A DNA stretch of 32,000 nucleotides from Geotalea daltonii FRC-32 (GTDB lineage Bacteria; Desulfobacterota; Desulfuromonadia; Geobacterales; Geobacteraceae), in the NCBI RefSeq assembly GCF_000022265.1, contig NC_011979.1, forward strand, positions 2,730,001-2,762,000, given 5' to 3'. The position numbers and the translations under genes are program-made. A model generated the notes under the pieces. It had not been told where the DNA came from and searched no databases. It saw only the letters and a program-made list of their open reading frames with translations. Shown here piece after piece: positions 6,626 through 24,048 of the stretch (within the stretch, counting starts at the first letter, position 1; each line of letters starts with the position of its first letter).

Positions 6626-6725
6626 AGTTGTCTGGGCAGCCAGCATGATTGCCGCCAATTTAGCAGGGGGGGCTGTGACCGTCAAGTAAAAATATATAAA
6701 AACTATCGACTAAATATAAAATTGC

Positions 6726-6754
6726 TTGACAGCAAATCTTTTTTTCAGTATTAA
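6726..6754 (+). promoter_or_regulatory. Sigma70-like promoter of the ABC / nitrogenase-like operon
   Basis: TTGACA (6726..6731), a 17-nt spacer, then TATTAA (6749..6754). Confidence 0.5.
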
Positions 6755-6755
6755 T

Positions 6756-6770
6756 CTATTTAAAAGATAG
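6756..6770. promoter_or_regulatory. CTAT-N7-ATAG box (box 1) adjoining the -10
   Basis: CTATTTAAAAGATAG is followed by ACTAAAAAG. The same architecture occurs at 14815..14829 and 24034..24048, and there is a related ATCGACTAAAT at 6704..6714. Confidence 0.45.
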
Positions 6771-6810
6771 ACTAAAAAGTTTAATTCATCAGGGGCTCAC
6801 TGGATAAACC

Positions 6811-6845
6811 GGAGGCCGGGGATTTTTTCCCTGGCCTCTTTTTTT
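6811..6845 (+). terminator. Intrinsic terminator in the leader of the ABC operon (candidate attenuator)
   Basis: GGAGGCCGGGGA-uuuuu-UCCCUGGCCUC followed by 7 U. No plus-strand gene lies upstream that it could terminate. Confidence 0.6.
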
Positions 6846-6981
6846 CGGCAGCAGGAAGGGGAAATCATGGCGGCAACTTGCTCGGCACTGGCGAGCGCTA
6901 CCCTTCCACGCCGCCTTTTAGAGGATCAGGTCATGGGCAAGCGGCATCGGTGAAACTTGGGCAGCGAAAGGGGGACCATGT

Positions 6982-7875
6982 ATGAGTGATACGCAAACTG
7001 AAAAAACCGGCAATTATCTTTTTCCCCGAAAAAAGGAGATCGGGTGGGCTGAAAAGGTATCGCAACGTGCAATTGATGAGGCAAATGGACAAAAGGTAGC
7101 CGGCATTCTTTCCTGGCTGGCGGCTCTCAACAACCGGTTGCTGGATTACTATGTCGGGATTGCCCTGCTGGTTTTGTGGGAGCTTGCACCACGCCTGAAA
7201 TGGATCGACTCGCAGTTCGTTCCTGCGCCCACGGCCATAATTACAGAAGGCGCCAAGCTGGCTTCTTCGGGAGAACTGCTGGTTCATATTGCCATCAGTC
7301 TGCAGCGGACCTTGCAGGGTCTGTTCTTTGCCCTGATTGTCGCTATTCCGCTGGGTTTTATCCTCGCCGGGTGGTTCCCGCGGCTGACCCGCTTTCTGGG
7401 GCCGCTGCTCAGACTGCTGGGCGAGATCAACGCATTTTCTCTCTTCCCGCTGTTTGTCCTGTTCTTCGGCATTGGCGAATTGGCCAAATTCAGCATCATC
7501 TTCTGGTCCTGCCTCTGGCCGATACTGTTTACCACCATTGCGGGGGTCCGGGGGGTGGACCCTCTTTTCGTCAAGCTGGCTCGCTCCATGGGGAGCGGGC
7601 GGCTGCTCCTCTTCTTCAAGGTGCTGCTGCCGGGAGCCCTCCCTTCTATTTTTACCGGAATTCGTCTGGGGGCTACGGTCGCTTTCCTCATGCTGATAGC
7701 TGCTGAAATGATTGGAGCCAGCACCGGCCTGGGCTGGCTGATCCACAACTCCAATGTCAACTTCATCATGCCCCGCCTCTATCTGGGAGCGGTACTCGTT
7801 GCACTCTTGGGAATGGCCCTCAATTATGGTCTTCATTGGCTTGAGTTACGAGTGGTCCGCTGGAAGGAAGCATGA
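6982..7875 (+). CDS. ABC transporter permease, NitT/TauT (sulfonate/nitrate/taurine) type, copy 1
   Basis: ...LWELAPRLKW...FSLFPLFVLFFGIGELAKF...KLARSMGSGRLLLFFKVLLPGALPSIFTGIRLG...AAEMIGASTGLGWLI. Confidence 0.85.
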   Translation: MSDTQTEKTGNYLFPRKKEIGWAEKVSQRAIDEANGQKVAGILSWLAALNNRLLDYYVGIALLVLWELAPRLKWIDSQFVPAPTAIITEGAKLASSGELLVHIAISLQRTLQGLFFALIVAIPLGFILAGWFPRLTRFLGPLLRLLGEINAFSLFPLFVLFFGIGELAKFSIIFWSCLWPILFTTIAGVRGVDPLFVKLARSMGSGRLLLFFKVLLPGALPSIFTGIRLGATVAFLMLIAAEMIGASTGLGWLIHNSNVNFIMPRLYLGAVLVALLGMALNYGLHWLELRVVRWKEA

Positions 7876-7912
7876 GGTCTTGGTCTGGAAGGCCTGAAAG
7901 GAGATCATCAAC

Positions 7913-22306: not shown

Positions 22307-22641
22307 AAAGCCCCAACAACTATAGCCATATTTACAGCATTGTGGCCTGTATCCCCAACGGGCGCGTGGCAACCTACGGACAGATTGCACGGCTGGCAGG
22401 GATACCGGGAGGCGCGAGGCTTGTGGGATACGCATTGAGTGTCCTTGCTGACAGGTCAATTCCGTGGCACCGTGTCGTCAATGCCAGGGGGGAAATCAGC
22501 CCACGCTCAGGCAGTGTTACTGCAGGTGACGTTCAGAGGCTTCGTCTTGAGGAGGAAGGGGTGCAGTTCGACAGGCAAGGTCGAATCGTACTTTCCCGGT
22601 ATCAGTGGCGGCAACAACACGGAGCCAGACAAATTGCTTGA
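22303..22641 (+). CDS. Alkyltransferase-like (ATL) protein, MGMT DNA-binding fold without the acceptor Cys
   Basis: ATYGQIARLAGIPGGARLVGYAL...IPWHRVVNARGEIS carries PWHRV instead of PCHRV. The TTG start overlaps the LysE stop (TTGA). Confidence 0.7.
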   Translation: MKSPNNYSHIYSIVACIPNGRVATYGQIARLAGIPGGARLVGYALSVLADRSIPWHRVVNARGEISPRSGSVTAGDVQRLRLEEEGVQFDRQGRIVLSRYQWRQQHGARQIA

Positions 22642-22725
22642 TAGAAGCCTTCTTAACATCATTCAACCTCTCTCCGCAGGGTTCACTTCGTGGAGAACGT
22701 AACCTTGAAGCACAAAAGGACAAGC

Positions 22726-23904
22726 ATGAGTACACAACACTTTGATTTCGATAGGGTCATCGACCGCCGCAATACAGGCAGCGAGAAATGGGACAAGTAT
22801 GCAGGGCGGGACATCATTCCCCTCTGGGTTGCGGATATGGATTTCCGCTCGCCGCCGGCGGTGATCGAGGCACTGCACGAGCGGGTCGAGCATGGTATTT
22901 TCGGCTATACCCATCCCCCGGCAGAATTGGTTGAGGCCGTACAGGCATCGCTACTGGCCGACTACGACTGGGCGGTGGAGGCAGAATGGATCGTCTGGCT
23001 GCCGGGGCTGGTCTGCGGGCTCAATGTGCTCAGTCTTGCCGTTGGCGAACCAGGTGACCAGGTAATTACCTTCATACCGGTTTATCCGCCATTCATGTCT
23101 GCTCCCGGGCTCACCGGACGGACACTGGTCAAGGTTCCCCTCAAGCTGGAAGATGATCGCTGGCAGATGGATCTGCCTGGCCTGGAATTGGCCATAACTT
23201 CGCGTACCAGATTATTGCTCCTCTGTTCGCCACACAACCCGGTGGGACGTTCCTGGTCCAGGGAAGAACTGGCGGCAATTGCCCAGGTGGCTGAACGTCA
23301 CAATCTCATCATCGGTTCCGATGACATCCACGCCGGACTGGTGCTGGATGAGGACAAACGGCATATCCCCATCGCCACCCTGTCTCCGGAAACGGCACGG
23401 CGCACCATTACCCTGCTGGCACCGAGCAAAACGTACAACATTCCAGGCCTCGGTTGTTCCTTTGCCGTCATCTCCGATCCGGGTTTGCGCCGCGCCTTCC
23501 GCAGCGCCAAGGGCCGCATTGTCCCCCATGTGAATACCCTGGGCTATACAGCGGCGTTGGCCGCCTATCGCCATGGGGAAGAATGGCGCCGGCAGTTGCT
23601 GGATTACCTGCGAGGAAACCGGGATCTGCTTACGGCGGAGATAAATTCCATGCCCGGCCTTACCATGGCCCATGTGGAAGCCACCTACCTTGCCTGGATC
23701 GATGCACGGGGGGCTGGCATAGAGGACCCGGCCGTGTTCTTTGAAGAGGCGGGGGTAGGGCTCTCCGATGGCGCCGATTTTGGCTCCCCCGGTTTTGTCA
23801 GGCTCAATTTCGGCTGCAGCAGGACTCTGCTGCTGGAGGCTCTGGGCCGGATGCGTCAGGCCTTGTCGCAAGAAGTGCCATTAAGGAGTAAAATCGAGAG
23901 GTGA
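22726..23904 (+). CDS. PatB/MalY-type PLP-dependent C-S lyase (cystathionine beta-lyase-like aminotransferase class I/II)
   Basis: MSTQHFDFDRVIDRRNTGSEKWDKY...IPLWVADMDF...APSKTYNIPGL...VRLNFGC. Confidence 0.85.
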   Translation: MSTQHFDFDRVIDRRNTGSEKWDKYAGRDIIPLWVADMDFRSPPAVIEALHERVEHGIFGYTHPPAELVEAVQASLLADYDWAVEAEWIVWLPGLVCGLNVLSLAVGEPGDQVITFIPVYPPFMSAPGLTGRTLVKVPLKLEDDRWQMDLPGLELAITSRTRLLLLCSPHNPVGRSWSREELAAIAQVAERHNLIIGSDDIHAGLVLDEDKRHIPIATLSPETARRTITLLAPSKTYNIPGLGCSFAVISDPGLRRAFRSAKGRIVPHVNTLGYTAALAAYRHGEEWRRQLLDYLRGNRDLLTAEINSMPGLTMAHVEATYLAWIDARGAGIEDPAVFFEEAGVGLSDGADFGSPGFVRLNFGCSRTLLLEALGRMRQALSQEVPLRSKIER

Positions 23905-23981
23905 AATAAAAAGTGGCCATCGCTGCCGACTGCCTCTACTTCTCCTGTTGATTGATAAATACGATCAAAATTTAAATTACT

Positions 23982-23996
23982 ATTGATATTATCAAT
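23982..23996. promoter_or_regulatory. Perfect 15-bp palindrome upstream of the nifS-selD promoter
   Basis: ATTGATA-T-TATCAAT. A nearby TTGAT-N11-ATCAA lies at 23948..23968. Confidence 0.4.
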
Positions 23997-24003
23997 ATAG
24001 TGC

Positions 24004-24032
24004 TTGCAAGATGGAAGTGTAGCTGCTATAAA
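24004..24032 (+). promoter_or_regulatory. Sigma70-like promoter of nifS-selD
   Basis: TTGCAA (24004..24009), a 17-nt spacer, then TATAAA (24027..24032). Confidence 0.45.
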
Positions 24033-24033
24033 A

Positions 24034-24048
24034 CTATTAAATCGATAG
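24034..24048. promoter_or_regulatory. CTAT-N7-ATAG box (box 3) adjoining the -10
   Basis: CTATTAAATCGATAG followed by ATTAACGG. Confidence 0.45.

Follow-up and report, generated by a model that had tools for sequence, protein, structure and literature searches.

Here we describe a short conserved DNA element, further called the box, which recurs in a 32,000-nucleotide stretch of Geotalea daltonii FRC-32 DNA (contig NC_011979.1, positions 2,730,001 to 2,762,000 of the forward strand). This whole stretch is the window, and coordinates are given in its numbering unless the handle of a related locus (L001 and the like) precedes them. In the window the box stands just after the predicted -10 hexamers of two operons for nitrogenase-like proteins and of a nifS-selD fusion gene, and in our reading it is probably the operator of a repressor of the Rrf2 family. 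Assignment of the window genes with Pfam and NCBIfam gave a unit of GNAT, LysE, MGMT-domain and aminotransferase genes and the following map (ABC, ATP-binding cassette):

5139-6428, minus strand: metY1, with a product 100% identical to the MetY protein of G. daltonii FRC-32
6982-14770, plus strand: ABC / nitrogenase-like operon with four ABC permeases, one ATPase, one nitrogenase-component-1-like gene (8798-10144), one unknown gene and an outer-membrane protein gene
14925-20816, plus strand: nifX-like operon with a nifX-like gene, an MtaA/CmuA-like methyltransferase, metY2 and two nitrogenase-component-1-like genes (a MarD/MarK-like pair)
24065-26263, plus strand: nifS-selD fusion, NifS-like part joined to selD via an in-frame TGA

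At 25262-25264 the last gene has an apparent stop codon, an in-frame TGA which belongs to the SelD active-site motif SCAG-U-AAKLSP, and for this reason NifS-SelD is read as one selenocysteine-containing fusion, in agreement with the initial annotation, which had been made from the letters of the window.

Pattern search and reading of the sequence yielded three boxes and one degenerate copy:

6756..6775, plus strand: box 1, CTATTTAAAAGATAG (6756-6770) followed by ACTAA
14815..14834, plus strand: box 2, CTACTAAATCTATAG (14815-14829) followed by ACTAA
24034..24053, plus strand: box 3, CTATTAAATCGATAG (24034-24048) followed by ATTAA
6694..6713, plus strand: degenerate box, ATAT-N7-ATCG followed by ACTAA, with two core mismatches, common to the divergent metY1 promoter

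The start positions of the three boxes (6756, 14815 and 24034) and the pentamers after them are exactly those of the initial annotation. It had also pointed to a fourth related site, ATCGACTAAAT at 6704-6714; such a site is real but degenerate, and the quoted letters lie one base further on, at 6705-6715. Box 1 matches the pattern on the minus strand too, its dyad symmetry reaching TTAATCTAT-N7-ATAGACTAA, that is 25 bp.

Promoters ahead of the three boxes were predicted by eye and with a scoring script, whose scale is the number of matches out of 12 with 0.5 added for a 17-nt spacer:

6726..6754, plus strand: predicted sigma-70-type promoter of the ABC / nitrogenase-like operon, TTGACA (6726-6731), 17 nt, TATTAA (6749-6754)
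14785..14813, plus strand: predicted promoter of the nifX-like operon, TTGACA (14785-14790), 17 nt, TACAAA (14808-14813)
24004..24032, plus strand: predicted promoter of nifS-selD, TTGCAA (24004-24009), 17 nt, TATAAA (24027-24032)

The ABC-operon promoter scores 10.5 on this scale. A distance of 1-3 nt between -10 hexamer and box had been claimed, and the gap proved to be 1 nt at all three promoters. Box 3 is followed by a short leader with a Shine-Dalgarno sequence, and the ATG is at 24065. The same promoter region holds a perfect 7-1-7 palindrome, ATTGATA-T-TATCAAT (23982-23996), which ends 7 nt upstream of the nifS-selD -35 hexamer. This palindrome, which is not related to the box and is also present in G. 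toluenoxydans, may be a site for a second regulator.

Conservation was followed in 16 reference-genome loci around homologs of the MtaA-like gene, coming from Geobacter, Geotalea, Geomonas, Geomesophilobacter and several metagenome-assembled genomes, and the box survey in total covered about 400 kb around selected genes. At least 26 instances are found in the window and these 16 Geobacteraceae loci, with the consensus aaaaCTAYnAAATCnRTAGACTAAa. Its core is a 15-bp inverted repeat, CTAY-N7-RTAG, with ACTAA on the gene-proximal side. The repeat is seen in all instances and has a size which suits a winged-helix dimer (about 15-25 bp); the right half together with ACTAA is the best-conserved part. 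All the instances read in context face the downstream gene. Phylogenetic footprinting, recommended by the initial annotation, thus found sequence, orientation and position of the box kept across Geobacter, Geotalea and Geomonas. In the locus fetched from Geotalea sp. SG265 (L008) no boxes were seen, because the genes there belong to a single long operon, and the end of the fetched locus cuts off its promoter.

The genes preceded by the box are sbp-cysTWA, mar-like operons for nitrogenase-like enzymes, metK, genes for a flavin mononucleotide (FMN) reductase, a SulP-type permease and a pyridoxal-phosphate-dependent (PALP) protein, and nifS-selD; a regulon of sulfur assimilation and organosulfur uptake genes, as is characteristic of CymR, is what the boxed genes make up. 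The metK box present in some relatives brings to mind SahR, the ArsR-family, S-adenosylhomocysteine-responsive regulator of Deltaproteobacteria, named as a candidate in the initial annotation. Of 9 Desulfuromonadales genomes, 6 are reported to have SahR, which controls genes of methionine metabolism and of the S-adenosylmethionine (SAM) cycle, its core regulon being the SAM cycle and not sulfate uptake or organosulfur genes (PMC4239095). Its motif is described there as a 20-bp palindrome, against the 15-bp core found here (the two were compared by description only). As no ArsR gene adjoins any box-bearing locus examined and the regulons differ, SahR seems not to fit, and we consider it a very unlikely candidate for the protein behind the box.

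Promoter scoring separates two placements of the box. In the first, it starts 0-5 nt after good -10 hexamers, as at the three window sites, at L013 (three sites), L006, L003, L002, L019 and L020, and at the Geomonas sbp promoters. In the second, the box precedes a -35 hexamer, with 16-18 nt between its end and the hexamer (L001 1238 and 19901; L007 14108; L011 14039; L012 14036). The degenerate window site at 6694-6713 falls into this second group, with 17 nt from the end of its core to the -35 hexamer, and perfect boxes hold the same position in Geomonas and G. hydrogenophilus. Since the 17-nt spacing is exactly that of the perfect upstream Geomonas boxes, the site appears to be a homologous, weakened box and not noise. 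The metY1 promoter itself (TTGACG, 17 nt, TAAATT; 6685 to 6657, minus strand) has no box after its -10 hexamer. Thus, of the two MetY enzymes which had been placed in one regulon, metY2 belongs to a boxed operon, but metY1 is linked only via the degenerate shared site.

The box is far more frequent than composition would give. In the whole window CTAY-N7-ATAG has 5 strand-matches against 0.39 ± 0.75 in dinucleotide-preserving shuffles, and the 20-nt extended pattern with up to two mismatches has 6 against 0.56 expected. When each non-coding segment was shuffled separately with dinucleotides kept, the non-coding DNA of the window (4.3 kb) gave 6 strand-matches against 0.16, and that of the window and related loci together (29.5 kb) gave 40 against 1.5 ± 1.6, whereas a frequency similar to that of random AT-rich intergenic DNA had been named in the initial annotation as the outcome that would speak against its proposal. 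The box does lie in AT-rich DNA adjoining -10 hexamers, and it could in principle be a chance product of such DNA, or an intrinsic element (discriminator or initially transcribed region) with no dedicated protein. This is hardly credible in view of the excess over the within-segment shuffles, the retention of the sequence while its placement shifts from after the -10 to before the -35 hexamer, and the confinement of the box to sulfur-related genes. What computation shows is a box that departs from chance, is conserved, keeps a fixed position and is tied to sulfur genes and, as described below, to the gene of a regulator.

In the uncultured Geobacter locus L002, the box at 2256 comes after the -10 hexamer of a gene for a 153-amino-acid Rrf2 protein (Pfam PF02082, E 1e-37), and a second box stands after the rrf2 stop codon, ahead of the sulfate-binding protein gene (sbp). 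Homologs of this regulator are kept across the family. In every locus fetched around rrf2 (G. sulfurreducens PCA, G. metallireducens GS-15, Geotalea toluenoxydans, uncultured Geobacter and four Geomonas species) the gene order is rrf2-sbp-cysT-cysW-cysA, and there are two boxes, the first at the rrf2 promoter, the second in the spacer between rrf2 and sbp. At the rrf2 promoter, 4-5 nt separate the -10 hexamer from the box and 5-9 nt the box from the start codon; in the four Geomonas species this box has one mismatch. The contig encoding the exact G. daltonii FRC-32 Rrf2 protein (P0241) has the same order and the same two boxes, rrf2 being located outside the window, immediately upstream of sbp-cysTWA. 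A third placement was noticed in the rrf2-sbp spacer of Geotalea (L101 8482-8520; L017 6483-6520), where TATAAT follows 3 nt after the box, which would there sit between the -35 and -10 hexamers. The G. sulfurreducens ortholog is GSU1345, a match confirmed by a published cloning primer, and this primer is all that was found on GSU1345 in the searched literature.

Among the fetched box loci, no regulator gene other than rrf2 is consistently tied to the boxes. From co-localisation and autoregulation, a standard argument of comparative genomics and here a strong one, we infer that Rrf2 and the box form a pair. The 'CymR/Rrf2-type' regulator suggested in the initial annotation agrees with this, as all genomes checked have the box at the promoter of a CymR/IscR-like Rrf2 gene. 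The MarR gene of the window (2741-3265) was also considered as the regulator and rejected, having no box nearby and not being conserved with the sites.

It may be argued that rrf2 is merely a member of the regulon and that a different factor binds the box, for instance a LysR-type sulfur regulator of the CysB or SalR kind. TAT-N7-ATA in the box satisfies the T-N11-A rule, and in several cases the box is found about 60 nt ahead of the start, where LysR recognition sites classically lie; most boxes, however, overlap the -10 hexamer and the start site, which is not where an activating LysR protein binds, and a T-N11-A element centred near -65 next to a divergent LysR gene is not the arrangement that was found. 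A LysR gene does occur 3 kb from GSU1345, but none is conserved beside, or divergent from, the box-bearing loci in other genomes fetched, and only rrf2 is consistently flanked by boxes. While the mar genes of Rhodospirillum need the LysR-type SalR (PMC13474568), for an Rrf2 repressor, inverted half-sites 7 nt apart that cover the -10 hexamer and the start are already documented (PMC9973013). We therefore consider a LysR-type or other factor in the place of Rrf2 unlikely.

Within the Rrf2 family, the closest equivalog model to the regulator is that of CymR (NCBIfam NF047409), where it reaches 92.6 bits and stays below the cutoff of 195; with the IscR model (TIGR02010) it has 69.3 bits, again below the cutoff (207.55). 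Among solved structures, B. subtilis CymR (2Y75) and T. potens IscR (4CIC) come nearest to it in sequence and fold. Four cysteines, C91, C100, C103 and C109, with the spacing C-x8-C-x2-C-x5-C, are invariant in ten Rrf2 orthologs; C91, C100 and C109 align with the mutated cysteine (cluster-ligand) positions of T. potens IscR 4CIC. The regulator would accordingly be described as CymR-like by its regulon content and IscR-like by its potential ligands, a member of neither equivalog family as far as its sequence tells.

Both the best equivalog hidden Markov model and the best structural match belong to CymR, which in Bacillus and Staphylococcus is the master regulator of cysteine metabolism; repression of genes for sulfur assimilation and for organosulfur uptake is a trait that the Geobacter Rrf2 appears to share with it. 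CymR is not known to have cluster-ligand cysteines; it acts in complex with CysK, being released by O-acetylserine, and its motif is unrelated to the Geobacter box. The Geobacter protein, in contrast, has the four invariant cysteines and scores far below the CymR family cutoff. The [2Fe-2S] regulator IscR is comparable in three of the four cysteines, in the cysteine desulfurase (nifS-like) found in the box regulon and in having both repressing and activating sites; the differences are the score below cutoff and the location of the gene beside sbp-cysTWA and not isc. Geobacter also has a separate IscR-like Rrf2, GSU1639, discussed in a paper on cobalt (PMC7726332).

A good precedent for the operator geometry is RisR of Myxococcus xanthus, an Rrf2 [4Fe-4S] holo-repressor of isc and suf which recognises GAC-N7-GTC over the -10 hexamer and the start (PMC9973013). 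RisR and the proposed Geobacter system have in common an Rrf2 winged-helix dimer and an AT-flanked inverted repeat with a 7-nt spacer over -10 and start, and RisR represses by occlusion (PMC9973013). The half-sites are different (TkGAC/GTCCw in RisR, CTAY/RTAG in Geobacter), as are the cysteine spacing and the regulon, which is Fe-S biogenesis in the one case and sulfur acquisition in the other. The LysR-type SalR of Rhodospirillum rubrum is similar in what it governs, namely nitrogenase-like Mar enzymes and the adjacent nflDK under sulfate limitation (PMC13474568), but it is an activator of another family, and no SalR-type gene is linked to the loci described here. Rrf2 operators and sulfur regulons as such are known kinds of thing.

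Taken together, the evidence makes it fairly likely that an autoregulated Rrf2 repressor (the GSU1345 ortholog) uses the box as its DNA operator; it would govern a sulfur-acquisition regulon including nitrogenase-like enzymes. A repressor operator tying the three units of the window into one regulon had been the central proposal of the initial annotation, and the conserved box, the sulfur genes downstream of it and the Rrf2 promoter lend it support. The identity of the binding protein, the sign of regulation and the signal we infer from sequence. A dimeric winged-helix Rrf2 would bind the box at the three window promoters. The bound box would span roughly -6 to +14; because only 1 nt separates it from the -10 hexamer and the expected transcription start falls within it, the bound dimer is expected to repress, by blocking open-complex formation or promoter escape. 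Rrf2 would likewise repress its own gene. The regulon would then consist of sulfate uptake (sbp-cysTWA), the ABC / nitrogenase-like module, the organosulfur module with nifX-like, MtaA-like, MetY2 and MarDK-like proteins, the NifS-SelD fusion and rrf2. The most likely logic would be repression when sulfur is sufficient and release when it is limited, since the targets serve sulfur acquisition and Mar-type enzymes elsewhere are induced at low sulfate, in other bacteria below about 100 μM (PMC13474568). The sensor might, speculatively, be a CymR-like protein partner, or else an Fe-S cluster or metal site on the four invariant cysteines; such a site, with an occupancy that tracks the sulfur supply, would make an attractive though hypothetical sensor.

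Several points weigh against the Rrf2 operator. The assignment comes from co-localisation and the logic of autoregulation, and rrf2 could be just another target of a different factor. The box appears asymmetric, ACTAA being kept only on the downstream side. At five or six sites, judged by their position about 60 nt upstream of the start, simple occlusion would be impossible; for this reason Rrf2 may also activate there, or act cooperatively or as a roadblock. The three box promoters are plausible but predicted only, and a stock promoter scan of the window did not list them, because their -10 hexamers end in A. The survey of boxes is limited to about 400 kb at selected genes. Finally, Fe-S binding is conjectural: the AlphaFold model of the regulator has the Rrf2 fold with the cysteine-bearing loop at low confidence, and so it neither supports nor excludes cluster binding.

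The window also contains copies of a small RNA attenuator:

6792..6846, plus strand: attenuator of the ABC-operon leader; antiterminator hairpin (P0 and P1, 6794-6817) overlapping the terminator (stem 6811-6839 and U-tract)
14834..14892, plus strand: attenuator of the nifX-like operon leader; P1 CCGG-AAAA-CCGG (14842-14853), terminator CCGGAGGTTTCC...GGAACCTCCGG followed by T7
6577..6643, minus strand: attenuator of the metY1 leader, of the same RNA class as the ABC-operon and nifX-like leaders
20845..20892, plus strand: degenerate copy after marK; P1 mismatched (CCUG/CCUG), GCUGA, AGGCC and a strong terminator kept

The motif is yUGA-CYRG-A..A-CYRG-AGG, running into an intrinsic terminator. 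Its hairpin is built of an outer P0 of 3-4 bp, an internal loop with GA on the 5' and A on the 3' side, an inner P1 of 4 bp (CYRG) and an A-rich loop, and it is regarded as an antiterminator because its 3' strand starts the 5' arm of the terminator. The copy at 20845-20892 is, on account of its mismatched P1, probably a plain, fixed operon-end terminator; the mismatched-P1 variant occurs in G. toluenoxydans as well (L013, about 15283). About 40 copies were counted in the window and related loci (L001-L014, L021-L026, L031), upstream of genes for metK, metY, cysK, nifH-like, nifB-like and nifX-like proteins, FMN reductase, sulfatase-maturation proteins, an SsuA-like binding protein and a SulP-type permease.

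Base pairing in the hairpin is supported by covariation. In an alignment of 31 sequences, for the choice of which P0 played no part, 95% of the cells of P0 and P1 are paired, against at most 52% in slid controls. One P1 position has AU 16, GC 13 and GU 1 times, another CG 26, UA 2 and UG 2 times, and at one P0 position GC (20), AU (4), GU (4) and UG (1) occur. The terminators fold at -20 to -29 kcal/mol, and leader z-scores are -3.3 to -4.8. In an RNA-blind count, 27 of 74 terminators with AGG at the base have the hairpin ahead of them. Among metagenomic metK loci chosen by MetK protein similarity only, all six of the closest carry the attenuator, several of them together with the DNA box, while nine more distant loci have a SAM-I riboswitch in its place; with a covariance model the attenuator was found only in Geobacteraceae-type loci. 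The leaders thus have what is expected of an attenuator, a terminator and a mutually exclusive antiterminator backed by covariation. No Rfam family corresponds to it: searches of Rfam 15 with the window at the gathering threshold and with the leaders at E<10 returned only terminator-driven, spurious matches to small RNAs and microRNAs, and in the literature, nothing on a sulfur-linked RNA motif of Geobacter was found in a 50-genome survey of non-coding RNA.

By these features the attenuator would be a second, independent layer on two of the three boxed units and on metY1, and it is a candidate for a new riboswitch or protein-dependent attenuator. Since the terminators far exceed the hairpin in stability, some factor must either hold the hairpin together for read-through or open it for termination; this could equally be a metabolite or a protein, for example an RNA-binding antiterminator of the LicT or ANTAR kind. 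Similarity to SAM-I lies in the same 5'-leader position upstream of metK and in the antiterminator/terminator expression platform, and similarity to the thiS (HMP-PP) riboswitch in the conserved nucleotides being placed in the 5' arm of the terminator (PMC6478431). The attenuator differs from both in having only about 25 conserved nucleotides and no Rfam family. Ribosome-mediated attenuation with a leader peptide, prompted by the invariant GGAGG, was rejected, as suitably spaced start codons are not conserved; so was a Cys-Cys-Pro-Cys run in the nifX-like leader as leader peptide, the run being absent in orthologs. Reading the hairpin as a K-turn, ANTAR dual-hexaloop, T-box or PyrR site was dismissed too: its features do not fit these motifs, and no Rfam matches support them.

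The structured leaders bear on whether the box itself works as RNA, that is as a shared 5' end of transcripts, part of a leader or riboswitch, or the target of a protein or small RNA; a common RNA leader had been the alternative offered in the initial annotation. The best-conserved part of the box, the downstream half with ACTAA, would be transcribed, and two of the three boxed units do have a conserved structured leader. The CTAY half, though, would lie at about -6 to -3, before the expected start, and the same box is also found upstream of -35 hexamers, outside that transcript. The leaders of nifS, sbp and rrf2 share no structure (the 24040-24110 fold has a z-score of 0.06), metY1 and many other leaders bear the attenuator without a box, and neither Rfam nor the covariance model requires one. 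Such a role is very improbable for the box, and the common-leader alternative finds no support in these data. The DNA operator of Rrf2 is the reading we keep for it.

Joining the two layers, one may imagine a sulfur-starvation circuit in Geobacteraceae, in which an Fe-S-type Rrf2 repressor reads the sulfur supply via its own cluster, and a very small, terminator-embedded riboswitch class, in the place of SAM-I at metK, senses a sulfur metabolite (SAM, O-acetylserine, O-acetylhomoserine or adenosine 5'-phosphosulfate); jointly they would control nitrogenase-like C-S-cleaving enzymes, sulfate uptake and NifS-SelD. We put this complete scheme forward as a tentative one, possible but doubtful as a whole.

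Service of nitrogenase-like enzymes in sulfur acquisition is already known from Rhodospirillum and Rhodopseudomonas (PMC13474568; bioRxiv 10.64898/2026.08.20.746119), and MtaA-like 'mlp' clusters have been linked to group IV-A nitrogenase homologs and MetY (PMC10418091; PMC13474568; bioRxiv 10.64898/2026.08.20.746119). Within the searched literature, the regulator-motif pair, the Geobacteraceae regulon and the attenuator appear new; databases of the RegPrecise type lie outside that scope, and prior annotation there is possible. The attenuator is more novel than the box. Mar-type enzymes have recently been discovered in the context of anaerobic sulfur scavenging, and their regulation is known only in purple bacteria via the LysR-type SalR. 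For Geobacteraceae there is now a testable model with a defined operator, a candidate regulator (GSU1345, in the genetically tractable G. sulfurreducens) and a predicted regulon, which would join sulfate transport, two nitrogenase-like modules, MetY and the NifS-SelD selenoprotein. The model suggests that an Rrf2 protein with a cluster-type set of cysteines may be a sensor of sulfur status. As a candidate new class of cis-regulatory RNA in the functional place of SAM-I, the attenuator would, should a ligand be identified, be of interest to riboswitch research.

Some further observations concern the two operons. The nitrogenase-component-1-like gene at 8798-10144 is single and lies among the four ABC permeases and the ATPase; a D-like/K-like pair takes this place in Geotalea sp. 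SG265 (L008). The ABC module (6982-13000) is accompanied by no gene recognisable as that of a substrate-binding protein, and no nifH-like gene was seen in the window. The spacer between the mtaA-like gene and metY2 (16500-16580) contains short hairpins and a T-run (TTTCCGATTCGGAAA ... GGGGATTTTTTG), and it could be an internal attenuator or a processing site. A short open reading frame (MAATCS..., 6868-6954) comes after the ABC-operon attenuator and starts like the NifB-like radical-SAM protein of G. hydrogenophilus (L001 2278, MATSCS...), whose gene holds the same position; it may be the remnant of a deleted nifB-like gene.

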